Shown one piece after another: positions 3,579-61,665 of a stretch of DNA of 64,000 bases (within the stretch, counting starts at the first letter, position 1; every line of letters starts with the position of its first letter). Below the pieces are notes generated by a model. The model was not told the DNA's origin and ran no database searches. It worked only from the letters and a program-made list of their open reading frames with translations. Made by a program: the position numbers and the translations under genes. The DNA lies in contig CAYGTO010000005.1 of the NCBI GenBank assembly GCA_964352815.1, forward strand, positions 7,904 to 71,903. Reading direction: 5' to 3'. This DNA comes from an uncultured Azospirillaceae bacterium. GTDB taxonomy: Bacteria; Pseudomonadota; Alphaproteobacteria; Rickettsiales; UBA3002.

Positions 3579-5080
3579 TCAAACCTCCGTGCTTGCTCTG
3601 CAGCCTTCATCAGCGCTTTGGCCTTGTTCCATGACTCTTGATATTCACCTTCAGGACTGCTGTCTGCGACCACGCCGCCGCCAGCTTGAATATGAAGCTT
3701 TCCATCTTTAATCAAGCCCGTGCGCAGTGTGATACAGGTATCCATTGCACCATTGGCCGAAATATAGCCGACACCGCCGGCATAGAAGCTGCGGCGTTCG
3801 GGCTCTAACTCATCAATGATTTCCATAGCGCGAATTTTCGGTGCGCCGCTAACGGTGCCTGCGGGGAAGCCGGCGATCAGCGCATCGATCGCATCATATT
3901 TGTCGCGATCGAGTGTTCCTGTTACGTGCGATGCAATATGCATCACATGCGAATAATATTCGATCTGCATCTGCTCATCAACGTTGACGGTGCCTGCTTT
4001 AGCAACACGGCCAACATCGTTACGCCCAAGATCGAGAAGCATCAAATGTTCTGCTGTTTCTTTTTCATCAGAAAGAAGGTCTTTCGCGAGCGCCATATCT
4101 TCTGCAGGTGTTTTGCCGCGTTTACGCGTCCCAGCGATCGGACGAATAGTGATTTCATCATCGCGCACACGCACCAAAATCTCTGGGCTTGATCCTACTA
4201 GTGCATAGTCGCCAAACTCTAAATAAAAGAGGAAAGGCGAAGGGTTCATCTGGCGCAGTGAACGATAGAGCGCGAACGGGTGGTGCTCAAACGGAGTAGA
4301 AAATCTCTGAGAGAGTACCGTCTGGAAAATATCTCCGGCCATGATGTAGTCTTTGGCTTTATTAACCATGCCGTGAAACTCAGGCTCGGTGACATTTGAT
4401 TCGAATGAGAGTGTTTCTGTATCCACGGGCTTGTAATAGCTGCGTTGATCAAGAGGGCCTTGGAGCGTGTCGATCACGGCTTCAATTTCTTGACGCGCGT
4501 CTTGATAGGCTTTTCCTGCACTGTATTCGTCGAACGTTGTTTCTGCCCAAATCGGGCGACACAAATAGACAACCCCATCAACCGAATCAAAAATGGCGAG
4601 CATTGAAGGGCGCATAAAACATGCATCCGGAATATCGATTGGGTCAGGATTTGTATCTGGTAATTTTTCCATCAGCTTGACCATATCATAGCCAAAATAA
4701 CCTACGATTCCTGCGGCCATGGGCGGCAGTTCGGAAGGTAGTTCCATGGTGCAGCGTTTTACCAGCTGGCGCATCGAGCTAAGCGCATCTTCATAGCATG
4801 GCTCGAAATGGTCTGGTTGAGTGAGTGCATCTTCGTTAATCTCAGAAGTGCTCCCAAAACAGCGCCACACGATATCGGGTTGCATGCCAATAATAGAGTA
4901 ACGGCCGCGTGCGGCGCCGCCCTCAACCGATTCTAGTAAGAAGCATACAGAGTGTTGTTTCCGTAGTTTGAGTACTGCAGAAACAGGCGTTTCCACATCG
5001 GCAACAAACCGTGTCCACATCATACTTGGATTTCCGGCCAGAAGCTGGTCAGTGACGGTTTGTTTTTCAGGAAATTGCAT
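3575..5080 (-). CDS. trpE: anthranilate synthase component I
   Basis: ORF 3575..5119 with LLESVEGG and GAPKIRAMEII motifs. I preferred the start MQFPEKQ (ATG 5080) because the longer start would overlap the ppiD-like gene by 32 nt. Confidence 0.93.
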   Translation of the reverse strand: MQFPEKQTVTDQLLAGNPSMMWTRFVADVETPVSAVLKLRKQHSVCFLLESVEGGAARGRYSIIGMQPDIVWRCFGSTSEINEDALTQPDHFEPCYEDALSSMRQLVKRCTMELPSELPPMAAGIVGYFGYDMVKLMEKLPDTNPDPIDIPDACFMRPSMLAIFDSVDGVVYLCRPIWAETTFDEYSAGKAYQDARQEIEAVIDTLQGPLDQRSYYKPVDTETLSFESNVTEPEFHGMVNKAKDYIMAGDIFQTVLSQRFSTPFEHHPFALYRSLRQMNPSPFLFYLEFGDYALVGSSPEILVRVRDDEITIRPIAGTRKRGKTPAEDMALAKDLLSDEKETAEHLMLLDLGRNDVGRVAKAGTVNVDEQMQIEYYSHVMHIASHVTGTLDRDKYDAIDALIAGFPAGTVSGAPKIRAMEIIDELEPERRSFYAGGVGYISANGAMDTCITLRTGLIKDGKLHIQAGGGVVADSSPEGEYQESWNKAKALMKAAEQARRFE

Positions 5081-7800: not shown

Positions 7801-7806
7801 CGTTTC

Positions 7807-7890
7807 GTCATTCTCGACCGAGCCTAGCGAGTGTCGGGAATCTAATCGAGATAGATCCCCGAGACGAACAGCAGTTCGCTCGAGGATGAC
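7807..7890 (+). repeat. GTCAT...ATGAC nested-hairpin element (84 nt), upstream flank of secG
   Basis: gtcattctcgaccg...cgggaatc-taatcgagata-gatccccg...ctcgaggatgac. The termini and centre are inverted repeats. Same subfamily as 8396-8476. Confidence 0.85.
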
Positions 7891-7908
7891 GGCAACTAAG
7901 GTAAGAAC

Positions 7909-8301
7909 ATGGAACTACAAACAATTTTACTCGCGCTGCATGTGGTTGTCACCTTGTTGATGATCGGATTTATTCTGTTGCAGAAAAGCAGCACTGATGG
8001 TTTTGGGCTTGGGGGCGGAAGTGGTGCAGGGCTGATGTCTGGGCGCCAGACGGCGAATTTTATGACGCGCACTACGGGTATATTGGCGGCCATCTTTATG
8101 GCGAATAGCTTGTTGCTCTCTATTCTAGCGGCCAGTGACCGTGGGACCTCGATTCTGGATGAAGCGCCGACTGCAGTGATCGAAGGGCAAGAAGAGCTGG
8201 GTGTTCCGCTGGTGGGTGATGGCGAGACAGCGACGCAAGACGTTGCTCCTGTGAAAATAAAGGAAATGCCGAGTGAGCCTATAGTGCCGCTCGCGGAATA
8301 A
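7909..8301 (+). CDS. secG: preprotein translocase subunit SecG
   Basis: 130 aa. LLALHVVVTLLMIGFILLQKSSTDGFGLGGGSG is typical of SecG. Conserved tpiA-secG-pyrG order. Confidence 0.9.
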   Translation: MELQTILLALHVVVTLLMIGFILLQKSSTDGFGLGGGSGAGLMSGRQTANFMTRTTGILAAIFMANSLLLSILAASDRGTSILDEAPTAVIEGQEELGVPLVGDGETATQDVAPVKIKEMPSEPIVPLAE

Positions 8302-8368: not shown

Positions 8369-8395
8369 GATTTCATGAGAGATTTGCAAATATTC

Positions 8396-10142
<1,747 letters not shown>

Positions 10143-10335: not shown

Positions 10336-10352
10336 TTAGCAATTCCTTCGAT

Positions 10353-10452
10353 GTCATTGCCTGAATTTCCATTGAAATTCTAAGGCAATCCAGAAAAAGT
10401 TCGATTAATTACTGGATTAACCTAGAATCGCACGCGCGATTCGGGTAATGAC
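10353..10452. repeat. GTCAT...ATGAC nested-hairpin element (100 nt)
   Basis: gtcattgcct[gaatttc-catt-gaaattc]taaggcaatcc ... attaacc-ta[gaatcgc-acgc-gcgattc]gggtaatgac. Two tandem hairpins, each with a nested perfect 7-bp hairpin. Confidence 0.75.
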
Positions 10453-10469
10453 AATAGAAAAGGAAGAAT

Positions 10470-13890: not shown

Positions 13891-13905
13891 TGTGTTTGTA
13901 TTGAT

Positions 13906-13963
13906 GTCATTGCCACGCACGGATGGCCAGCGGGTCATATGTCGCAGATTGATCGAGGATGAC
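13906..13963 (+). repeat. short (58 nt) derivative of the nadA-flanking element
   Basis: gtcattgccacg...cgaggatgac has the same two termini as the 155-nt copies at 59563-59716 and 60825-60979, with the internal hairpins missing. Confidence 0.7.
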
Positions 13964-14091
13964 AAGGAAAGGGGTGCTTGCTGCGCCGCAGCAACTTTTT
14001 CTCAAGAAATTCAGGCCTTTCCCCTTGTTTTATAGAATTTTGATCAGTACATTCCTTGCAACGTTGCAATACGGTTCGTTTGGAGGAACAG

Positions 14092-15516: not shown

Positions 15517-16515
15517 ATGGCAACACAAACAATACGGGTCGCGCTGAGAGACGCCATGGCGGAGGAGCTTCGCCGCGATGAAGAAGTGTTCGTGATGGGC
15601 GAGGAAGTCGCCGAATATCAGGGCGCGTATAAGGTAACGGAAGGCTTGCTTGAGGAATTTGGCGACAAGCGCATTATTGATACACCGATCACCGAGCATG
15701 GCTTTGCGGGGATTGGTGTCGGCGCAGCGATGGCGGGGCTGAAGCCCGTTGTCGAATTCATGACGTGGAATTTTGCGATGCAAGCGATTGACCAGATCAT
15801 TAACTCTGCCGGCAAGACGCTTTACATGTCCGGCGGGCAGATCAAATGTCCGATCGTGTTTCGTGGGCCGAACGGCGCGGCCGCGCGCGTAGGTGCACAG
15901 CATTCCCAGGAATATTCCAGCTGGTACGCGCATATTCCGGGCCTTACCGTCATCGCGCCTTACAGCGCCGGCGATTGCAAAGGCCTGCTCAAATCCGCGA
16001 TTCGCAGTCCCAATCCGGTGATCTTCCTTGAGAATGAAGTGACCTATGGCTGGGAATTTGACGATGTGATGGAAGGCGAAGATGATCTGATTCCGATCGG
16101 CAAAGCGGCTGTGAAGCGCGAAGGCACGGACGTGACCATCACCGCCTTTTCGATCAATGTGAAATATGCGCTCGATGCGGCAGAGAAACTTGCCAAAGAG
16201 GGCATTAGCGCGGAGGTGATTGACCTGCGCACGATTCGTCCGCTCGATACGCAAACCATCATTGATTCGGTGCGCAAAACCCATCGTTTGATTTCCGTTG
16301 AAGAGGGCTGGCCCTTTGCTGGAATTGGCTCCGAGCTCGCAGCCATTTGTATGGAAGATTTGTTTGACGAGCTGGATGCACCGATGATTCGTGTGACGGG
16401 CAAAGACGTGCCGATGCCGTATGCGGCGAACCTTGAAAAACTCGCACTGCCCGGTGTAGATGACATTGTCAATGCGGCGCAGGAAGTCTGTTTTCCAATG
16501 GGGGCGGTGGCGTGA
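15517..16515 (+). CDS. pdhB: pyruvate dehydrogenase E1 component, beta subunit (no lipoyl domain)
   Basis: 332 aa with [25 protein letters not shown] and a transketolase-like pyrimidine-binding region. Confidence 0.95.
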
Positions 16516-16530
16516 GAAAAATGAAGCAAC

Positions 16531-16621
16531 GTCATTTCGAGCGAGCGCATCAGCGCGACGAGAAATCTGTCGGCGTCATGTTGAGATTTCTCCGTCTGCT
16601 AAAGCAGCCGTTCGAAATGAC
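16531..16621. repeat. GTCAT...ATGAC nested-hairpin element (91 nt)
   Basis: gtcatttcgag...gagaaatc-tgtcggcgtcatgtt-gatttctc...cgaaatgac has a perfect 8-bp inner stem. It overlaps the 5' end of the following ORF. Confidence 0.8.
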
Positions 16622-17330
16622 GTATATTATTTTCGCGGGAATGACACTTTTAGTGTTCACTTCCATTGCCCATGCCGACGATGATCTCGTACGCAGTGTG
16701 AGCGTGGTGGGCGAAGCAAAAGAATCACTCACCCCAGACCGCGCAACCATTAGCAGCACGGTACAGGCAAAGAACCAAAACTTAGACGCCGCAAAGAAAG
16801 AGCATGATGCGAAGCTTCGCAGCCTTTTGGCTCTGGCGAAGAAATATGATGTTGATGACAAAGACCAGCGCACGGTATCAAGCCGGATTCATCCGGAATG
16901 GCGTTGGGAAAAAAACACGCAAGTCTTTAAGGGATACACCGTGTCGACCACGGTGAGTTTTACGCTGGAAGACATCAAAGATGTGGGCGCGTTTTTAGAA
17001 GATGTGGTCCGCACCAAGCCCCATCAGATGAACGGCCCGAATTATCACATGGATGACACGAAACCGATCCGCGATAAGGTGCGTGTGTCGGCGATGAAAG
17101 ATGCGTATGCGAAAGCGGAAGCGCTTGCGAAGCAGGCTGATTTGAAGGTGGGGAAGGCCATCAGTATTTCAGACCGCTACCAGTCACCGCGGCCAGCTAT
17201 TGTAAACCGCGGTATGATTCGCGCTGATTCGGTTTCGTTTTCGGCGATGGAATCCGCGCCTGTTACTCCCCCTGCCGGAGAGCAAGCGATTCACGCGCAT
17301 GTCTATGTCACTTATGAGTTAGAAGAATAG
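16578..17330 (+). CDS. SIMPL-domain (DUF541) periplasmic protein
   Basis: A signal peptide ending ...LLVFTSIAHA, then a SIMPL-like body (DRATISSTVQAKNQNLDAAKKEH...). The start is ambiguous: 16578 (MLRFLRLLK, inside the repeat), 16617 (the ATGAC terminus of the repeat) or 16641. The ORF track begins at 16512. Confidence 0.7.
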   Translation: MLRFLRLLKQPFEMTYIIFAGMTLLVFTSIAHADDDLVRSVSVVGEAKESLTPDRATISSTVQAKNQNLDAAKKEHDAKLRSLLALAKKYDVDDKDQRTVSSRIHPEWRWEKNTQVFKGYTVSTTVSFTLEDIKDVGAFLEDVVRTKPHQMNGPNYHMDDTKPIRDKVRVSAMKDAYAKAEALAKQADLKVGKAISISDRYQSPRPAIVNRGMIRADSVSFSAMESAPVTPPAGEQAIHAHVYVTYELEE

Positions 17331-21273: not shown

Positions 21274-21384
21274 TTTTTGCGTTTCTTCCCGCTCCGGCCT
21301 CCTGGCCTGCGCGATGAAGCTAACGCCTTCGGCGACTAAAGTATCGGCCTACTGGCCTTACTTTACGATACCAGCTGTGCCGGA

Positions 21385-21520
21385 ATTTATCCCCGTACCC
21401 GCCTACGCGGGCATAAACTCCGGCGGGGATCCAGAGCAGCAGGCTATATGAAGCATAACGCCCCAGACCCCGCAACAAGTGCGGGGTGACATGTGTGGGG
21501 CGAAGCGAGCACGGGATCTC
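21385..21520. repeat. degenerate cluster of hairpin repeats related to the GTCAT family
   Basis: atccccg[..cccgc-ctac-gcggg..]cggggatcc and ccccgca-acaag-tgcgggg hairpins, similar to the 58557-58659 copy. The boundaries are uncertain. Confidence 0.35.
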
Positions 21521-21602
21521 CAGCTCTAAATCTTCACGAAACTGCCACACACCCTTCCTACTTAGTGGCTATATTTCGGCCAATTAAACGCGGAGATACA
21601 CT

Positions 21603-32743: not shown

Positions 32744-33156
32744 GATCTCTCCTCTCTATCGAGGAATCGCCGATGCGCTAGCGTGACAAATAGATATGCG
32801 ATCGCCCACTTACGTCAGCGAAAAACACTCCAGGGGCGGGGTTAATGGCATATCACTATGATGAATCAAAAGAATCTCCAAAAAATCTGTCTATTTTGTA
32901 GGTGCTATCGCTTTCGAGCGTATCCTCAAATATGTTTTCTTCGTTATCACTAAAACAGCGTTCATCAATGCTTTAAACGCCACTTTATCAATTACTTATG
33001 TCAGGTGACTCATTTCACCTTATTAGCAAGCATAGCGACCAGAAACGGGAAATACAATGAAAATATGTGGTAGAAAAACTATATGAATGAGATTGTTAGC
33101 TATTTTCTGCTTGAGTGTTGACGATAAAGGCGATTGCTCGAACAGCGAAAATTCGT

Positions 33157-55336: not shown

Positions 55337-55385
55337 TGAAAGTCGCTAGTTATTAGTCTCTAGTTGTTAGCGACTAACAGCGAGC

Positions 55386-55699
55386 GTCATTCTGAGTGAA
55401 GCGCAGCGCAACGCAACGAAGAATCTCCTTGCGTTTGACGCGATAGATCCTTCGCATTCGCTCAGGATGACGACGTCTCCCGTTCTGCGAGAAGCGAAGC
55501 GACGAAGCAGTCCATTAACATTGTGCATTACGCTTTGGATCGCGCTTGCCCGCTATAGCCTTGGCAAAGGCTGGTCGCCGGCACGATGTGCCTTCTCGCG
55601 AAACGGCATAATCTCGTCATCTCGAACACGGCGCAGCGTGAGCGAAGCAGTGGAGAGATCTTAGATTTCTCCATTCGCGGGGCTCCTGTTCGAAATGAC
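55386..55699 (+). repeat. mosaic of three repeat units (left flank of the RTX gene)
   Basis: unit1 55386-55471 (gtcattctgag...gctcaggatgac), unit2 55472-55615 (cgttctgcgagaagcgaagcgacgaagcagtcc...ccttctcgcgaaa) and unit3 55616-55699 (gtcatctcgaac...gttcgaaatgac). Confidence 0.8.
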
Positions 55700-55815
55700 G
55701 GCGCGAAGCCAGCAGGCGTAGCCCTTCAGTGCGCGGAAGCGCTTAGGCTTATCGTGAGCGCAGAAGCGCGAACGGGAGCGATCAAAAAAACTCTAACCCC
55801 CTGATTTTTCATTTT

Positions 55816-55990: not shown

Positions 55991-57052
55991 ATGAGTAACA
56001 CCATCATCGGTTCCGACGGAGGGGAAACCCTCAACGGAACCAACGGCGACGACGTCATCTTCGGCAACGGGGGCAATGATGTCCTCCGCGGCAACGAAGG
56101 TGATGACACCCTCTGGGGTGGGCTTGGCGTCGACACCCTCTTCGGAGGTGCCGGTGCCGACATTCTTGACGGTGGCTTCCAGACGGGAAGCACCGTTCAC
56201 GTCAACGAGTTCGACGTGGACGGCGACCTCCTGTGCGGGGTCGACCGGACGATCATCTATGTGATCAACGGTGTCGCCCACATGGCCGAGTTCGGTTTCG
56301 AAGACGCCAACGGCAATGGTGTTTGGCTTCTCGACGACGGTGACGGTGTCACCGACTTCGAGGCCCGCCTCGTGCGGGAAACGCCCGATCACGAGCTGTT
56401 CGGCGTTTTCGCCGTCGAGCAGCCGGTCGACCCCGACCCGGTGGAAACGCCGGGCACGGGCGGCGACCCGGACTTTATCGATATCGACATCATCGGCGAC
56501 GGTGATAACGACATCGATATCGACATCGACGGACCGGTGATCGACATCGACATCGACGGCCCCGTGGACGGGGACGTTGACATCGACATCGACATCGACA
56601 ATGGCGATGGGCACGATACGCCCTCTGGTGACGACGAGATCGATTCGCTGGAATCGGCCTGGGTCGAGCTCCTCTACGAGGCGGGTCTGAACCGTCCTGC
56701 GCAGGGCGCCGGCAAGGCGTTCTGGCTCGATGTCTTCGAAAGCTTCGAGGACGCCGAGGAAGGGTCCAACTTCCTCGCCTACCACTTCCTGTACTCTCTG
56801 GAGTTTCAGGAGAATGTGGGAGACGTGGAGACGATGGACTCGTTCCACTTCGTCGGTGCGCTCTACGAGAACGTCCTCGACCGCGAGGCCAAGGCCGGTG
56901 GCCTGGACTTCTGGGCCGGGGTCGATGAGCGTGGCGATTCGAGCGTAGAGACGCGGGTCGAGATCCTGGAGGCCTTCGCGGGAAGCCAGGAGAACATCGC
57001 TCAAGCCGACTTGGCTGGGGAGTATACCTCAGGCGACTTCATCTGGATCTGA
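55991..57052 (+). CDS. RTX (hemolysin-type calcium-binding) repeat protein with a DUF4214-like C-terminal region
   Basis: Five N-terminal nonapeptides (GTNGDDVIF GNGGNDVLR GNEGDDTLW GGLGVDTLF GGAGADILD), an acidic DIDIDID core and a C-terminal LLYEAGLNRPAQGAGKAFWLD...ALYENVLDREAKAGGLDFW segment like DUF4214. AGGAG SD. G+C-rich. Confidence 0.8.
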   Translation: MSNTIIGSDGGETLNGTNGDDVIFGNGGNDVLRGNEGDDTLWGGLGVDTLFGGAGADILDGGFQTGSTVHVNEFDVDGDLLCGVDRTIIYVINGVAHMAEFGFEDANGNGVWLLDDGDGVTDFEARLVRETPDHELFGVFAVEQPVDPDPVETPGTGGDPDFIDIDIIGDGDNDIDIDIDGPVIDIDIDGPVDGDVDIDIDIDNGDGHDTPSGDDEIDSLESAWVELLYEAGLNRPAQGAGKAFWLDVFESFEDAEEGSNFLAYHFLYSLEFQENVGDVETMDSFHFVGALYENVLDREAKAGGLDFWAGVDERGDSSVETRVEILEAFAGSQENIAQADLAGEYTSGDFIWI

Positions 57053-57134: not shown

Positions 57135-57176
57135 GGGGGTGAGGGCCGCAAGGTTCTCCCCCCTCTTTCTTTTGTG
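57135..57176 (+). terminator. putative intrinsic terminator after the RTX gene
   Basis: An imperfect GC stem (gggggtgag...tctccccc) followed by tctttcttttgtg. It is preceded by a stable cccctcc-ttcg-ggagggg hairpin at 57100-57117. Confidence 0.4.
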
Positions 57177-57185
57177 TGGCACTAT

Positions 57186-57469
57186 GGATCCTTCGCATGC
57201 GCTCAGGATGACGATATCTTTCGTTCTGCGAGCGGACACGCAGTGTCAAGCGACGCAGTCCAGCAGAATCTAGCAACACGCTCTGGATCGCGCTTGCCCG
57301 CCGTAGCCTTGGCGAAGGCTGGTCGTCGATGCGTGGCATCTCCTCGCGAAATGTCTAGCATCGTCATTTCGAACGACCGCGCAGCGGGAGGAGAGCCGAA
57401 GCGAAGCTAAATCTCATGATATTGCCCGAGATCCTCACATCGTTCGTTTCACTCGCTCCTCAGGATGAC
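57186..57469 (+). repeat. mosaic of repeat units (right flank of the RTX gene), same order and orientation as 55386-55699
   Basis: 3' half of unit1 57186-57212 (ggatccttcgcatgcgctcaggatgac), unit2 57213-57362 (cgttctgcgag...tggatcgcgcttgcccgccgtagccttggcgaaggctggtcg...ctcctcgcgaaa) and unit3 57363-57469 (gtcatttcgaacg...cctcaggatgac). Confidence 0.8.
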
Positions 57470-57568
57470 GAGATGTGAATGGATCGCTTCGTTGCTCATG
57501 ACATTCGCGCCTCGCGAAATGGCACTTTATGCATTGACTCTAGGCCGCAAACCGTCAAGATTCCTCAC

Positions 57569-58555
57569 ATGCAGATTACTCCCTTCACCCCGCACCCTTA
57601 TGAAACCATCTCCCATCACGTATTCCCCAAGCCCATTGGCGAAGAGGTCTATGCGCAGTGGAACACAAAGCTCGCGCGGGAAGAAGCGCTAGTGACGGAG
57701 CGCATTGCCTATGAGGTGGGCGGTGTGCCCGTCTCGGGGGTGCGTGTGATGCCGGCTCTTGAACCGTCATTGCGAGGGAGCGCCAGCGACCGCGGCAATC
57801 TCCCTCAAGATGACGCCACGCCTCACGAGATTGCCACGCATCCTTCGGATGCTCGCAATGACGATGCTTCCTACCCCCTCATTATCTTCAACCGCGGTGG
57901 CAGTGGCAGCTATGGTATGATCACCACGCTGCAGATCGTCTATCTGCTACATCCGATGGCGAAATTCTGGGGCGGCGCGATTGTGCTGGGCAGTAATTAT
58001 CGCGGGAATGACACCGAGGCGGCGCTGGATGAGCGGCTCGATGAATTTGGCGGCGCGGATGTGGCCGATGTGCTCGCGCTGATCGAGGAAGGCAAGAAAA
58101 TGCCGCAGTGGGATGGGAAGAATATTTTTATGGCTGGCTGGTCGCGCGGCGGCATGATGGCGGCACTGGCGATGAAGCAGGGCGCCGAGCTTACGGCAGC
58201 GGCGGCGATTGGCGGGGCGTTTGATTTAAAGGATATGCTCGAAAAGCGCCCAGGCATGCGCGACACCTATGAGCGGCGGATTGGGATTACGAGCCAAGAA
58301 AAGCTGGAGCAGGATATGCGCGAGCGTTCCGCCATTCACTGGCCCGAGGCGATCAGCGCGCCGTTCCAGCTTCAGCATGGTGATGCGGATGAACAGGTGA
58401 GCGTGGAAGGCGCAAAGCTGCTTGCGGAGAAGTTAGAGGCGATTGGTGCGCCGCATGAGCTGATTCTGCATGCGGGCGGTGATCATTTCTTGAACCGTAA
58501 GCGTGAAGAGGTGCTTGCGCATATTGAGCGGTGGTTTAGAAACTATAAAACGTGA
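57569..58555 (+). CDS. alpha/beta hydrolase (S9 prolyl-oligopeptidase / dienelactone-hydrolase-like) carrying an in-frame repeat insertion
   Basis: Nucleophile elbow GWSRGG, with HGDADEQV and GGDHF near the C-terminus. I preferred start MQITPFTPHP (ATG 57569) over 57479, which lies just after the repeat mosaic. Confidence 0.75.
   Translation: MQITPFTPHPYETISHHVFPKPIGEEVYAQWNTKLAREEALVTERIAYEVGGVPVSGVRVMPALEPSLRGSASDRGNLPQDDATPHEIATHPSDARNDDASYPLIIFNRGGSGSYGMITTLQIVYLLHPMAKFWGGAIVLGSNYRGNDTEAALDERLDEFGGADVADVLALIEEGKKMPQWDGKNIFMAGWSRGGMMAALAMKQGAELTAAAAIGGAFDLKDMLEKRPGMRDTYERRIGITSQEKLEQDMRERSAIHWPEAISAPFQLQHGDADEQVSVEGAKLLAEKLEAIGAPHELILHAGGDHFLNRKREEVLAHIERWFRNYKT
57766..57862 (+). repeat. 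GTCAT...ATGAC element inside the hydrolase CDS, read through in frame
   Basis: gtcattgcgag...ctcgcaatgac (perfect 11-nt terminal inverted repeat), translated as PSLRGSASDRGNLPQDDATPHEIATHPSDARNDD immediately before the conserved YPLIIFNRGGSG strand. Confidence 0.75.
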
Positions 58556-58556
58556 T

Positions 58557-58659
58557 GTCATCCCCGCGACCCGAAGGGCGGCGCAAGCCAACGCGGGGAT
58601 CCAATTAAACAAACTGCGTTCTCTGGGATTCATTAGATTCCCGCTTTCGCGGGAATGAC
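58557..58659 (-). repeat. GTCAT...ATGAC nested-hairpin element (103 nt)
   Basis: gtcatccccgcg...cgcggggatcc ... gattcccgc-tttc-gcgggaatgac. It starts 2 nt after the hydrolase stop. Confidence 0.8.
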
Positions 58660-58667
58660 AATATTAT

Positions 58668-59099
58668 ATGAGTAAACAGCCTACCTTCCTCAATAAACCA
58701 ATGAAGCATATGACGCCCCAAGAATGGGAGTCGCTATGCGATGGTTGCGGGCTATGCTGTCAGATTCAGGTCGAATGCGGTGATTCGGGGGAGCGGGCGC
58801 TGACGAATGCGGCCTGCCGCTATCTGGATTTATGCACGCACCGCTGCAGCGATTATGAGAACCGTCAAAAGAATGTGCCCGATTGCGTCAAGGTGACGCC
58901 GCAGAATATTGCTGAGCTGGATTGGCTCCCTGGCACTTGCGCGTATCGGTTGGTCTATCAAGGCTTTGACCTGCCCGAATGGCATTATTTGATCTGCGGC
59001 GACCGGCAAGAAGTGCACCGCTCGGGCCCGTCGATGAAAGGCGAGCTGATCTCGGAAGATGACACCGACTTTGAAGGGGATGAGGGGCGGAATGTCTAA
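58668..59099 (+). CDS. ycgN: YcgN family cysteine-cluster protein (UPF0260)
   Basis: 143 aa with WESLCDGCGLCC and further conserved Cys residues (CRYLD..C..C). Confidence 0.8.
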   Translation: MSKQPTFLNKPMKHMTPQEWESLCDGCGLCCQIQVECGDSGERALTNAACRYLDLCTHRCSDYENRQKNVPDCVKVTPQNIAELDWLPGTCAYRLVYQGFDLPEWHYLICGDRQEVHRSGPSMKGELISEDDTDFEGDEGRNV

Positions 59100-59106
59100 T
59101 ACACTC

Positions 59107-59190
59107 GTCATTCTGTGGCGAGCATAGCGAGAGCACAGAATCTGATGGAAAGATCCTGTGCAGCCTGCTATCGCAGTCTCACAGGATGAC
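59107..59190 (+). repeat. GTCAT...ATGAC nested-hairpin element (84 nt)
   Basis: gtcattctgtg...cacagaatc-tgatggaaa-gatcctgtg...cacaggatgac. All four arms are variants of one 8-mer. Confidence 0.85.
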
Positions 59191-59206
59191 AATGAAAGGA
59201 AGTGAT

Positions 59207-59560
59207 ATGAAACTGCACGGAATCAAGAATTGTAACACGGTGAAAAAAGCGCTCGACTGGTGCGATACGCAGGGGCTGGCTTATGAATTCCATGACTACA
59301 AGAAGCAATCGCCCGATGAGGCGGTGCTTAAAAGCGCGATGGAGAAATGGGGCTGGGAAAAAGTGATCAACCGCGCCGGGATGACGTGGCGGAAGCTGAG
59401 TGATGATGAGAAAAATGCGGTGAATGATGATGCGTCTGCGATGGCGCTGGCGATGGAGAAACCGTCGGTGATTAAGCGGCCGATTGTGACGGATGACAAT
59501 GGCGCGCCGATGGTGATGGGCTTCAAAGACGCGGAGTATGAAGCGGTGCTTTCCTCTTAA
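59207..59560 (+). CDS. yffB: ArsC/Spx-family reductase-like protein (YffB type)
   Basis: MKLHGIKNCNTVKKALDWC N-terminus, with AAGGAAG SD before ATG 59207. The ORF-track ATG 59186 is the terminal ATGAC of the repeat. Confidence 0.75.
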   Translation: MKLHGIKNCNTVKKALDWCDTQGLAYEFHDYKKQSPDEAVLKSAMEKWGWEKVINRAGMTWRKLSDDEKNAVNDDASAMALAMEKPSVIKRPIVTDDNGAPMVMGFKDAEYEAVLSS

Positions 59561-59562
59561 CT

Positions 59563-59716
59563 GTCATCCTCGGGGCTTTTGTTAGTAGACAAAAGAGCCC
59601 GGGGATCCAGAATCAAAAGGTCAGGAGACCTTTTGATATTCACTGATGTCTACTGACATCAATGAACTAGATTGCCTGGATGCGCTCGCTTGCTACTTGC
59701 TTACCGTGGCAATGAC
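59563..59716 (-). repeat. compound 154-nt element, left inverted copy flanking nadA
   Basis: gtcatcctcgggg[cttttgt-tagtag-acaaaag]..ggggatccagaa[tcaaaaggtc-agga-gaccttttga]..[ttcactgatgtc-tact-gacatcaatgaa]..gattgcctgg...ccgtggcaatgac. Confidence 0.85.
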
Positions 59717-59808
59717 ACTAATCTTACATTCCCGTCATCAAATATTAATTGCGGAAACTTTTTTTCGCGTCATAATGTCAAATATAGTTAATATTCTGGC
59801 AAAGGTTA

Positions 59809-60813
59809 ATGACTGAGATTACGCCACAGTCGAACGATCGTTCAGCTATCACGCCTGCAATTCCACGTGATTTGGAAGGTGAGATTGATCGCCTGCGCAC
59901 GGAAATGAACGCAGTCATTTTGGCTCATTACTATCAAGAGGACGAGATTCAGGACATTGCCGACTTTGTGGGTGATTCGCTCGATCTCTCGCGTAAGGCG
60001 GCGGCGACGGATGCGGATGTGATCGTGTTTTGCGGTGTTAAATTCATGGCGGAAACCGCAAAAATTTTGAGCCCAGAGAAAACGGTGCTACTTCCGGATT
60101 TGAAGGCAGGGTGTTCGCTTGAAGATTCCTGCCAACCAGAGAAATTCAAAGCGTTTCGTGAGGCACACCCGGACCATCTCTCGCTGACCTACATCAATTG
60201 CTCGGCCGAGGTGAAAGCGCTATCGGATATTATTGTGACTTCGACGAATGCGGAACATATCATCAACCAAATTCCCGAAGACCAGCCAATTTTGTGGGCA
60301 CCGGATAAATTTCTCGGCGGCTATTTGGCGAAGAAAACGGGCCGTGAGATGCTCTTGTGGGACGGGACATGTATTGTGCATGAGCGTTTTTCTGAACAGG
60401 AATTAGTGAAACTTAAAACCCGCCATGCAGGCGCGCATGTAATTGCGCATCCGGAGTGCCCCGAAGCATTGCTGAATCATGCGAACCATATTGGTTCGAC
60501 CTCCTCCTTGCTGAAATTCACAGAAGAACGCCCGGGTGAAGAATTCATCGTGCTGACCGAGCCAGGGATTCTGCATCAGATGGAGCTGCGCTCGAAAGGC
60601 AGCACTTTTTATGATGTGCCCGGCGCGATGGATTCGGGCTGTGTGTCGTGTAATCATTGCCCTTATATGAAAATGAATACGATGGAAAAGCTCTATCTCT
60701 GTATGGATCAGCGCGCGCCAGAGCTCACGCTTTCTCCCGAGCTTATCACAGCGGCACATAAGCCACTTGCGAAGATGTTAGAGATGTCGCAAGATATCCC
60801 GATAAAGAAATAA
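59809..60813 (+). CDS. nadA: quinolinate synthase
   Basis: 334 aa with ILAHYYQ, VHERF and conserved Cys ligands (C..CxxC..). Confidence 0.93.
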
Positions 60814-60824
60814 CACATTATTTT

Positions 60825-60979
60825 GTCATTGCCACGGTAAGCGAGCAGATAGCGAGCGCATCCAGGCAATCCATTCCATTGATGTCAGGAGACATCAATG
60901 GAAATAAAAATGTCTTCTGACATTTTTATTCTGGATCCCCGGGATCTTTTGTCTTGCTGACAAAAGCCCCGAGGATGAC
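60825..60979 (+). repeat. compound 155-nt element, right inverted copy flanking nadA
   Basis: gtcattgccacgg...ccaggcaatcc..[ttccattgatgtc-agga-gacatcaatggaa]..[ataaaaatgtc-ttct-gacatttttat]..ggatccccggg..[cttttgt-cttgctg-acaaaag]ccccgaggatgac. Its architecture is the reverse complement of 59563-59716. Confidence 0.85.
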
Positions 60980-60996
60980 AGATTACGGAGGCATAT

Positions 60997-61665
60997 ATGC
61001 GCGTATTAATTATCATTCTTCTTCTCATTGGGGCGTGCGCCGGCGGGCTTTATTACTCATGGCAAGCAAAGACTGAAGCGTATCTCGGTTATATCAAATA
61101 TATGATTGAGAGCTATGAGATGAATATGCCAAAGGGCATGGAAGTAGTGACCGAGGGTTTTGCGATAGAGGGCTTCCCATTCGAGAATCGTGTGGTGATG
61201 TCTCATTCAAGTTTAGTGAGTGATGACGGGATTGAGCATTTAGAGATTCACAGCCACCGCATCGCGTTTACGCTTGAATCGGTAGGCAATTACACGCGTA
61301 CAAAAGTGGAGTGGCTTGAGCCGATTAAGGTGATTTATGGCCGCAACGGCAACCAGAACACATACCGCGTTAAGCAGGTTGAGCCAATGACGGCGTATTT
61401 AAAATATGGCAGCAAGCAGAACAATAAAACGCCGACCACGCTAGATACCATGCCGCCGCCTAATCGGGCTGGAGTGAAACTTCCAAAACCCTTCGTGCTC
61501 GAAGCAACATGCGGGGAGGTGAAAGAGACCATTGCCTTTCCCAAGCTACCAGAGATGAATACGGTGTTGTGGGTCGAAATTCCGACAAATCTATACAATT
61601 CATTGAGAATTTTTACGTACATGATTGATGAAGCCTTAAAGGGTAAAGGTAACTGCATAAAATAG
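60997..61665 (+). CDS. hypothetical membrane-anchored protein (possibly DUF2125-like)
   Basis: GGAGG SD, an N-terminal TM segment (VLIIILLLIGACAGGLYY) and an EGFPFENRVV segment reminiscent of DUF2125. The assignment is tentative. Confidence 0.5.
   Translation: MRVLIIILLLIGACAGGLYYSWQAKTEAYLGYIKYMIESYEMNMPKGMEVVTEGFAIEGFPFENRVVMSHSSLVSDDGIEHLEIHSHRIAFTLESVGNYTRTKVEWLEPIKVIYGRNGNQNTYRVKQVEPMTAYLKYGSKQNNKTPTTLDTMPPPNRAGVKLPKPFVLEATCGEVKETIAFPKLPEMNTVLWVEIPTNLYNSLRIFTYMIDEALKGKGNCIK

Follow-up and report, generated by a model that had tools for sequence, protein, structure and literature searches.

The Neisseria Transformation Sequence (NTS) and the broader Ssn-related motifs (SRM) are hairpins that the GIY-YIG nuclease Ssn recognizes in ssDNA; the enzyme cuts the motif only in that form and ignores RNA (Chenal et al., Nat Commun 2025, PMC11893778). 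Mutagenesis showed that the C right after the palindrome is the most critical base for Ssn binding and that the 3 nt before the palindrome are the most critical for cleavage; the class has been reported in the alphaproteobacteria Rhizorhabdus, Wolbachia, Rickettsia and Devosia, and ssn, a cd10448 GIY-YIG gene, is typically flanked by its motifs (PMC11893778). Another system close to what is described here is the neisserial intergenic mosaic element (NIME), a dRS3-RS-dRS3 arrangement in which ATTCCC-N8-GGGAAT palindromes flank variable repeats of 50-150 bp (Parkhill 2000; Bentley 2007, PMC1797815). NIMEs form long arrays and have been described as Neisseria-specific (PMC1797815).

The window analyzed here is the whole 64-kb stretch of DNA presented, from an uncultured marine alphaproteobacterium. 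As the first-pass annotation had claimed, inverted copies of one compound element with identical termini lie around nadA, and the pair encloses nadA alone, with 91 nt of spacer upstream of the gene and 10 nt downstream. The features of the locus are:

59561-59717, + strand: element A, 157 nt, consisting of an outward SRM-like hairpin, two core hairpins and an inverted SRM-like hairpin
59563-59607, + strand: A end hairpin 1, GTC-ATCCTCGGGG...CCCGGGGAT-C, basal stem with T·G at position 5
59576-59595, + strand: distal stem of A end hairpin 1 (hairpin 1 of the first-pass annotation)
59612-59637, + strand: A core hairpin 2, ATCAAAAGGTC-AGGA-GACCTTTTGAT
59639-59666, + strand: A core hairpin 3, TTCACTGATGTC-TACT-GACATCAATGAA
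59670-59716, - strand: A end hairpin 2, the - strand reading GTC-ATTGCC-(31-nt loop)-GGCAAT-C
59718-59808, + strand: nadA upstream spacer, intact beside the element, with the motif CGTCATCAAATATTAATTGCG ... GCAAAGGTTAATG
59809-60813, + strand: nadA (quinolinate synthase), in its ancestral position and orientation
60824-60981, - strand: element B, 158 nt, inverted copy of A with 87% identity
60825-60871, + strand: B end hairpin 2, whose forward reading GTC-ATTGCC...GGCAAT-C is on this strand
60874-60930, - strand: B core hairpins 3 (60874-60903) and 2 (60903-60930), with GTC-N4-GAC apices
60934-60979, - strand: B end hairpin 1, GTC-ATCCTCGGGG...CCCGGGGAT-C; distal stem 60946-60966

A repeat search recovered the pair as two sets of inverted arms, 59587-59717/60824-60954 (131 nt, 87%) and 59561-59585/60957-60981 (25 nt, 96%). 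The full alignment of A (59562-59717) against the reverse complement of B (60824-60980) has 20 differences in 157 columns (87.3% identity), and the 22 nt at its start and 20 nt at its end are identical. The inverted ends of each element extend for 6 nt only. A begins 1-2 nt past the stop codon of an ArsC-family gene and B begins 10 nt past that of nadA. The three internal hairpins reported earlier were located in A, with their mirror images in B; hairpins with a GTC-N4-GAC apex occur in the window inside A and B only, plus one unrelated site at 33000, and the single C/A mismatch of A core hairpin 3 on the + strand is a G·T pair on the - strand. A and B are an enlarged variant of the family described below: their end hairpins are long and bipartite, and their core holds two further hairpins.

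Both copies fold strongly as RNA (z = -7.3 for A and -8.2 for B), and 0/200 shuffles equalled either fold. The earlier claim that differences between the copies preserve pairing was borne out: the consensus stems hold three both-sided changes (C-G to A-T, G-C to T-A and T-A to C-G), two changes on one side only that leave a G·T pair, and no change that breaks a pair. Across 200,000 simulations of 19 random substitutions, on a stem structure that was itself derived from A and B, the two sequences compared, at least three compensatory doubles arose at a frequency of 0.0009 and an outcome with no broken pair never arose. Related elements from another genome (L010) have hairpins at matching places with different stem sequences. 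Since pairing is preserved between A and B and the L010 hairpins are kept with other stems, the comparison supports the view that the hairpins are functionally constrained and not decaying. Counting against this explanation, template switching within a strand can keep palindromes self-paired even where selection is absent.

All four end hairpins of A and B start with TGTCAT, and the other window hairpins with (C/T)GTCAT, in agreement with the SRM 5′ flank HGTCWY; a C directly follows the stem (...GGGGAT-C, ...GGCAAT-C, ...GGGAAT-C) in every hairpin listed. Judged by sequence, then, the bases critical to Ssn, the GTC that precedes the palindrome and the C that follows it, are the invariant flanks here, the ends of A and B included. 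Like NTS/SRM, the hairpins are oriented, with a 5′ (C/T)GTC, a palindrome starting AT(T/C)C... and a C directly after it, and they are intergenic, abundant and clustered around particular genes. They differ in that the A/B end hairpins have loops of 23-31 nt, one of them with a second distal stem, where SRM loops are 0-5 nt, and in that they form fixed outward-facing pairs around a structured core. The published pattern HGTCWYN(0-2)YYVSBRHN(0-5)WNVSBRGN(0-2)RNCYNB matched one site in the window (21463-21491) compared to 0.27 in shuffles, and neither A nor B matched; the two elements fail the operational SRM definition because of their loop lengths (14-31 nt among the window hairpins). A GIY...YIG motif scan of six-frame ORFs below 160-200 aa found no GIY-YIG/ssn gene in the window or in the related loci L005-L020 (about 90 kb).

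The basal stems are also asymmetric between strands. Read on the GTCAT strand, their non-canonical pairs are T·G, G·T, G·A or A·G 24 times and the complements of these 8 times, with the T·G at position 5 seen in eight distinct hairpins; this count does not give a clean probability, as the copies counted are related to each other. The bias may be taken as indirect support for recognition of the forward strand as ssDNA. Stable non-canonical pairs (T·G, G·A) lie on the GTCAT strand at both ends of an element, and the two GTCAT strands oppose each other, which favours ssDNA rather than mRNA: with the ends "forward" on opposite strands, a single transcript cannot hold both in the favourable form. 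Of the earlier suggestion that the hairpins are functional as RNA or ssDNA rather than decaying junk, the constraint is supported, and these pairs, together with terminal hairpins of the NTS/SRM class, narrow the choice of molecule towards ssDNA.

A and B have company in the window, where at least 14 related elements occur, all in spacers. Each consists of two outward-facing (Y)GTCAT-stem-loop-stem-ATC hairpins around a short core. There are 16 GTCAT-stem-loop-stem-ATC hairpins in the window versus 3.4 ± 1.6 in shuffles, and they are arranged in spacers as outward-facing pairs. Members of this superfamily include:

58556-60981: run of four elements (58556-58660, 59105-59191, A and B) that occupy successive spacers
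58636-58659, - strand: canonical hairpin GTCATTCCCGCGAAAGCGGGAATC, an exact dRS3 ATTCCC-N8-GGGAAT and, but for two end mismatches, the Neisseria NTS consensus
7806-7891, + strand: element in the tpiA-secG spacer
8395-8477, + strand: element in the secG-pyrG spacer, direct-orientation partner of 7806-7891
10352-10453, + strand: element upstream of a DAHP synthase gene
55385-55703: cluster upstream of an RTX/DUF4214 gene
57169-57473: cluster downstream of the RTX/DUF4214 gene, holding the direct-repeat partner of 55428-55603
13905-13964, - strand: remnant or minimal member of 58-60 nt; both termini of A/B type, fold not significant

The hairpin at 58636-58659 matches the 28-nt NTS consensus CGTCATTCCCGCGMAVGCGGGAATCYRG except at its first and last bases, and the element that begins at 58556 adjoins a stop codon. 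When the 20-bp NIME palindrome ATTCCCNNNNNNNNGGGAAT was searched for, exact dRS3 patterns were found at 58636-58655 and at two locus edges, the end of L005 and the start of L012, and the ends of A and B proved to be ATCCTCGGGG.../ATTGCC... variants with long loops, not dRS3. By these sequence features the family resembles the Neisseria NTS/dRS3 motifs, with A and B as its largest local members. The smaller members have 12-nt terminal inverted repeats and are able to fold end to end. A proposed 58-nt derivative at 13906-13963 does have both termini (12/13 and 10/13 positions), while its interior is unrelated and its fold, with z about 0, is no better than that of shuffles; it may be what is left of a larger copy, or a minimal form. 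A bracketing pair is not special to nadA, since secG and the RTX-like gene are flanked by similar pairs in direct orientation.

Compared to NIMEs, short conserved palindromes here also seem to flank variable sequence, syntenic spacers have genome-dependent content and particular genes are flanked. The differences are that the units are mostly single (sets of two or three are confined to 55.3-55.7 kb and 57.1-57.5 kb), that the host is an uncultured marine alphaproteobacterium, and that the A/B core is two hairpins with a GTC-AGGA-GAC-type apex; the long multi-unit arrays of NIMEs at syntenic positions were not seen. REP sequences have a conserved 5′ GTAG tetranucleotide and associated RAYT (Y1 HUH) transposase genes. 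With REP/BIME the present family shares inverted pairs of extragenic palindromes, short linkers, positions downstream of genes and ssDNA hairpins of a kind recognized by a dedicated enzyme, but the flank is GTC...C (GTC-AT at the 5′ side) in place of GTAG, and the matching characterized enzyme family is GIY-YIG in place of RAYT; no RAYT gene was seen among the annotated neighbouring genes. Correia elements carry terminal inverted repeats of 26 nt together with a TA duplication. They and other MITEs are likewise about 150 nt long, intergenic, with inverted ends, and exist in full-length and shortened forms, though in A and B the inverted ends span 6 nt and a duplication is lacking; membership among the MITEs, defined by terminal inverted repeats with a target-site duplication, did not hold for A and B or for the copies inspected.

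Only two full copies of the A/B subfamily were obtained. An nhmmer search with the A/B profile found no further full copy in the window and matched a related element in L010. Among 185,579 species genomes the 5′ 20-mer of A/B turned up only as a chance match inside a Treponema SDR gene, and it had no match in JGI metagenomes. A degenerate compound pattern made to fit both L010 elements as well as A and B returned two matches in those metagenomes, each a chance one in coding sequence. Patterns of the termini with a gap gave one unrelated high-GC match in IMG/VR and nothing more. Logan contigs of several samples break at common internal positions, 59597/59625 and 60951 (31 nt from the end of B), which is consistent with further copies, as such breakpoints are expected where stretches of roughly 30 nt are repeated elsewhere in the genome. 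The wider family is present in related genomes at the same and other spacers with differing content; further NTS-like hairpins were found in L005, L012 and L020, those of L020 as inverted pairs.

We consider it fairly probable that A and B form one subfamily of non-coding, non-autonomous intergenic repeats with NTS/SRM-class ends that are recognized as ssDNA in the manner of Ssn, and that the bracketing of nadA is a by-product. Each end is a hairpin of the form 5′-(Y)GTC, stem starting AT, loop, stem ending AT, C-3′, and the two face outward on opposite strands so that an element reads GTCAT...ATGAC. Between them lies a variable core, which in A and B is two A/T-rich hairpins with GTC-N4-GAC apices. 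By analogy with Ssn of Neisseria and Wolbachia, whenever DNA is single-stranded, as in replication, repair or incoming DNA, each end may fold on its own strand and be bound by a cognate small GIY-YIG ssDNA endonuclease, which would cut a few nt 5′ of the GTC, just outside the element. Recognition by such a nuclease would keep the hairpins and the GTC/C flanks intact and probably underlies the spread and turnover of the family. The nadA bracketing would then come from elements settling in adjacent spacers, probably by local duplication, and its sole likely consequence would be that nadA-bearing ssDNA is cut on either side.

It is possible instead that the elements act as RNA in a REP/BIME-like role, in which they are co-transcribed, their mRNA hairpins serve as 3′ stabilizers, partial terminators or operon insulators, and selection on RNA keeps the pairing. 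Their tight fit between same-strand genes (A and B directly after the ArsC-family and nadA stops, the element at 58556 at a stop codon) and the very strength of the RNA folds would suit such a role. We nevertheless think it unlikely: no U-tract follows the stems, and terminator-like matches are weak and internal to the element. Rfam at gathering scores and permissive E-values gave nothing relevant, and for a nadA/NAD+ riboswitch in particular no match reached gathering score anywhere in the window, nor did any reach E<=5 within 58500-61050. The elements are found in both orientations, and with the stable non-canonical pairs on opposite strands at the two ends, half of them would be C·A or C·U mismatches in one transcript. 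The only characterized enzyme of the motif class, Ssn, also ignores RNA (PMC11893778).

Somewhat more doubtful is a conventional MITE, with a DDE-type transposase acting in trans on the TGTCAT...ATGACA ends as dsDNA and internal hairpins that are incidental. Ends that are short inverted terminal repeats, (Y)GTCAT/ATGAC(R), and presence, absence and replacement at orthologous spacers are what such an element would show, as are the 12-nt repeats and possible end-to-end folding of the smaller members. Against these stand the lack of a target-site duplication at any inspected copy, the mere 6 nt of inverted end in A and B, and conservation that falls on hairpin stems and their strand-asymmetric pairs instead of on a dsDNA binding site; no transposase was seen adjoining a copy.

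The first-pass annotation had likened the nadA segment to a composite element or an invertible segment and had proposed a comparison of the locus in related genomes. In this comparison the order ArsC-nadA-hyp-nadC-DctQM-Fur was found, with the place and orientation of nadA unchanged, in relatives that have other elements or none in the spacers, which argues that nadA is not the cargo of a composite transposon. Relatives with 77-81% identical NadA have an unchanged ArsC-nadA-hyp-nadC order and orientation, and their corresponding spacers hold a different element or none, being 3 nt long in the TARA relatives and replaced by overlapping genes in L010; the CGTCATCAAATATTAATTGCG ... GCAAAGGTTAATG motif upstream of nadA is also found in L009 and L012. 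In total, position and orientation are constant across five related lineages with elements present or absent. Logan contigs from five samples are all in the orientation of the window, although these are short-read contigs that a rare minor form could escape; they join ArsC to A positions 1-65, and A position 37 via nadA into B. Inversion junctions sought in these contigs gave no alternative, with YcgN-derived contigs entering A and ending at 59625, and the exact 124-aa and 117-aa ArsC-family products used in seeking junction contigs returned no record. An invertible DNA switch did not fit the locus, which had one orientation in the five Logan samples and all relatives and no site-specific recombinase among the annotated neighbouring genes. 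By sequence comparison nadA shows no sign of mobility or invertibility. That recombination between A and B flips nadA, or that the pair mobilizes it, is suggested by inverted 157-nt repeats of 87% identity placed 1.1 kb apart around a single gene and its promoter region, but mobility is largely refuted and both readings are very improbable given the fixed position and the single orientation of the ArsC-A and A-nadA-B contigs, the promoter region sitting inside the segment so that a flip would detach nothing regulatory from nadA, and the direct pairs at secG and the RTX-like gene, from which inverted geometry is not a rule.

NIMEs were long held to be a Neisseria peculiarity, and the pairing of NTS/SRM with Ssn was described only in 2025. 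The window shows this motif class in an uncultured marine alphaproteobacterium, where it takes the form of discrete two-ended units that have grown into multi-hairpin elements of 157 nt, with housekeeping genes bracketed by pairs of them. The strand-asymmetric stem pairs offer a sequence-only argument for functional ssDNA on each strand in turn, and the two end hairpins of A would be concrete substrates for asking whether Ssn tolerates long bipartite hairpins. For annotation, the presence of inverted copies on both sides of a gene in such a genome is no ground for calling a transposon or a switch. The window is also a natural system for the question of whether hairpin pairs are mobile. It is conceivable, but unlikely, that the outward Ssn-type hairpin pairs mark the two ends of a separate class of hairpin-ended, non-autonomous mobile element, and that a small GIY-YIG ssDNA nuclease cuts such elements immediately beyond both ends, on opposite strands; A and B would then be an enlarged version that acquired extra hairpin modules. 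If this were true, the bracketing of single genes such as nadA, secG and the RTX-like gene would reflect local hopping, or would delimit gene-sized units of ssDNA exchange in marine alphaproteobacteria.

Two inverted copies of a compound element enclose nadA, and a global alignment and a repeat search of the window agree on this arrangement and on the shared termini.

59561-59717, + strand: element A, 5′ of nadA
60824-60981, - strand: element B, the inverted copy 3′ of nadA

The repeat search returned inverted arms 59587-59717/60824-60954 (131 nt, 87%) and 59561-59585/60957-60981 (25 nt, 96%). A (59562-59717) and the reverse complement of B (60824-60980) aligned over 157 columns with 20 differences, none of them in the first 22 nt or the last 20 nt. 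The three hairpins described in the first-pass annotation lie where it had placed them in both copies; in A, hairpin 1 is the distal stem within the left end hairpin, with hairpins 2 and 3 making up the core, and bipartite long end hairpins are frequent in the source genome. Both copies were folded and compared with shuffled controls, giving z = -7.3 for A and -8.2 for B. The claim that the differences preserve pairing also held, as on the consensus structure three are both-sided compensatory changes, two are one-sided but retain a G·T pair, 12 fall in unpaired columns and none breaks a pair. When 19 substitutions were placed randomly in 200,000 trials, at least three compensatory doubles arose with a frequency of 0.0009 and all pairs were left intact in 0/200,000, although the compensatory statistic is somewhat inflated since the consensus structure came from the same A and B sequences. 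Prediction on either copy by itself also yields each of the hairpins, and the conclusion that the structure is under constraint is well founded.

At the apex of the core and distal hairpins, whose A/T-rich stems are otherwise unrelated, stands GTC-AGGA-GAC, in places as the complement or a close variant; this common apex is a candidate second module type seen in two genomes (59620-59629, 59648-59657, 60884-60893 and 60912-60921 in the window; 15660-15780 and 5030-5055 in L010, the relative GCA_028281385.1). On one strand its loop looks like a Shine-Dalgarno sequence, on the other like an anti-Shine-Dalgarno sequence. No additional A/B-type copies were retrieved from the sequence collections searched. 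Logan contigs of independent samples (L001, L005-L008, L013, L014) end or begin at fixed sites in A/B (59597, 59625 and 60951), the last lying 31 nt from the outer end of B, a distance equal to the Logan k-mer size. Extra genomic copies with common ~30-mers would cause such breaks; alternatively, they could reflect population polymorphism at those points, around hairpin 1.

Scanning for GTCAT-type termini and then inspecting each spacer identified many smaller elements in the window with the plan of A and B, which are the largest local members of this superfamily.

Smaller superfamily elements in the window
7806-7891, element
8395-8477, element
10352-10453, element
13905-13964, 58-nt copy
16530-16646, element
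about 21380-21530, element
55385-55475, element
55615-55703, element
57185-57215, element
57350-57473, element
58556-58660, element
59105-59191, element

The left end is a top-strand hairpin, GTC-AT...stem-loop-stem...AT-C, and the right end a like hairpin on the bottom strand, so that an element reads (Y)GTCAT...ATGAC(R). With relaxed structural criteria, 16 GTCAT-stem-loop-stem-ATC hairpins were detected in the window, against 3.4 +/- 1.6 (max 9) in dinucleotide shuffles. The 58-nt copy, annotated as a derivative of the nadA pair (13906-13963), keeps both termini (12/13 and 10/13 matches), but its interior is unrelated, and the copy shows no significant fold. Several degenerate hairpin modules (…CCCGCCTACGCGGG…, GGGGATCCAG…) occupy the spacer at 21380-21530. 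The right end of 59105-59191 (…CACAGGATGAC) extends over the place where the ArsC-family gene begins, and the ORF start called at 59186 falls within the element; Logan gives a 122-aa product from 59192, with the AGGA of the element positioned like a ribosome-binding site. Hairpin density is 2.5-5.7 per 10 kb in the window, L010 and L020 (a relative whose NadA is 79% identical), whereas the closely syntenic, streamlined TARA/JGI marine contigs L017-L019, with compact spacers, have essentially no elements, so expansion of the family has been confined to some lineages.

The hairpin at 58636-58659 (-), TGTCATTCCCGCGAAAGCGGGAATCT, fits exactly the meningococcal dRS3 pattern ATTCCC-N8-GGGAAT (PMC1797815), and differs from the 28-nt Neisseria Transformation Sequence (NTS), CGTCATTCCCGCGMAVGCGGGAATCYRG, only at the first and last bases. 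Akin hairpins occur at L005 5026-5049, at L012 1-23 and many times in L020, where near-canonical NTS hairpins abound and form outward-facing pairs like those of the window. The small GIY-YIG nuclease Ssn binds and cuts NTS and broader Ssn-related motifs (SRMs), cleaving only ssDNA, on the forward strand only, 3 nt 5′ of the motif (Chenal et al. 2025, PMC11893778). The most critical base for binding is the C directly after the palindrome, whereas cleavage depends most on the GTC that precedes the palindrome (PMC11893778); all hairpins found in our analysis have exactly GTC and C as invariant flanks. Several alphaproteobacteria carry these motifs in abundance, and ssn genes typically have them on their flanks (PMC11893778). 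The published SRM pattern has one exact match in the window, at 21463-21491 (-) in the spacer 21380-21530. On balance, we assign A and B at family level to NTS/SRM-ended, NIME-like intergenic repeats as an enlarged multi-hairpin variant, though they are not SRMs under the published operational definition because their loops are long. The window and the fetched loci yielded no GIY-YIG ORF, and by analogy we infer a cognate Ssn-type enzyme for the window hairpins.

The first-pass annotation had left function open between RNA and ssDNA. Among the non-Watson-Crick positions in the basal stems of 28 distinct hairpins, the GTCAT strand had T·G, G·T, G·A or A·G in 24 cases and the complements, whose stable form would be on the opposite strand, in 8, a lead rather than a probability because the hairpin copies are related. 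T·G at stem position 5 is shared by 8 distinct hairpins, the left ends of A and B among them, and tandem G·A/A·G at positions 6-7 recurs in end hairpins of the window and L010, always on the GTCAT strand (59563-59607, 7807-7842, 7854-7890, L010 15751-15795 are examples of asymmetric basal pairs). The palindromes are thus systematically imperfect in one direction, the direction expected if the strand 5′-GTCAT...ATC-3′ folds. In every element the two ends have their forward reading on opposite strands, and the genes on either side run in one direction, so a single mRNA would hold one end in its unfavourable form; DNA, unlike mRNA, exposes both strands in turn. Rfam gave no family match, including the nadA-motif riboswitch, nor is there a convincing intrinsic terminator after the stems. 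A role at the RNA level we regard as unlikely; the likely functional form is a hairpin in ssDNA that an Ssn-type nuclease recognises. That A and B represent a classical MITE seems similarly improbable.

The genes around nadA are an alpha/beta hydrolase, YcgN, the ArsC-family reductase, nadA, a 222-aa hypothetical protein, nadC and DctQ, and the window also has eno, then y-type pdhA, an order that together with the NadA relatives indicates an uncultured alphaproteobacterium. Identical NadA was found on one NCBI contig (137,654 nt) and short Logan contigs, and the closest relatives show 82%, 81-80% (TARA Oceans marine contigs included) and 77% identity. The order and orientation nadA-hyp-nadC are constant in L010, L011, L012 and L017-L019, with ArsC upstream in all of these except L012, which begins ~115 nt upstream of nadA, short of ArsC. 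Homology of the hypothetical gene is genuine (42% identity in L012, 23% in L010). Spacer content differs.

Spacers flanking nadA
ArsC-nadA, L010: 166-nt element, architecture as A/B, sequence very different
ArsC-nadA, L012: end of a dRS3-like hairpin
ArsC-nadA, L009: degenerate remnant
ArsC-nadA, TARA relatives: plain sequence
nadA-hyp, window: B
nadA-hyp, L012: unrelated 86-nt superfamily element
nadA-hyp, L010: genes overlap
nadA-hyp, TARA relatives: 3 nt

The 91-nt spacer between A and nadA holds a motif, …TTAATTGCG…GCAAAGGTTAATG, conserved 5′ of nadA in three lineages (window 59733-59808, L009 690-772, L012 40-114), so A sits upstream of an intact promoter/leader; this motif is a candidate promoter/operator untouched by the elements. 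With synteny kept, spacers variable and Logan contigs of five samples all collinear with the window, the suggested composite transposon carrying nadA is refuted and the suggested invertible segment is unsupported, and we consider either event highly improbable.

Bracketing of genes recurs in the window. The 82-86-nt elements 7806-7891 and 8395-8477 flank secG (7909-8301) in direct orientation with identical 17-nt and 14-nt termini, and the left-hairpin distal loop of one is similar, in reverse complement, to the right-hairpin loop of the other, as if modules had been exchanged and inverted. An RTX/DUF4214 gene (55991-57052) lies between ~180-nt direct repeats (55428-55603 and 57169-57351, 76-81% identity) composed of superfamily hairpin modules, paralleling Neisseria NTS/NIME clusters around surface and RTX genes. 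Because the housekeeping gene orders tpiA-secG-pyrG and ArsC-nadA-hyp are conserved, it was the elements that arrived beside the genes rather than the genes beside the elements; similar copies on both sides of a gene would be explained most simply by local duplication into the adjacent spacer. NTS tend to cluster around particular genes, and an NTS-gene-NTS layout reduces integration of transforming DNA (Chenal et al., PMC11893778). In L010, a TfoX_C-domain gene of the competence-regulator family (4237-4587) adjoins the ArsC-family gene. NTS/SRM-ended, NIME-like repeats were previously undescribed in this lineage, and the TfoX_C gene could matter if the hairpins act on incoming ssDNA.
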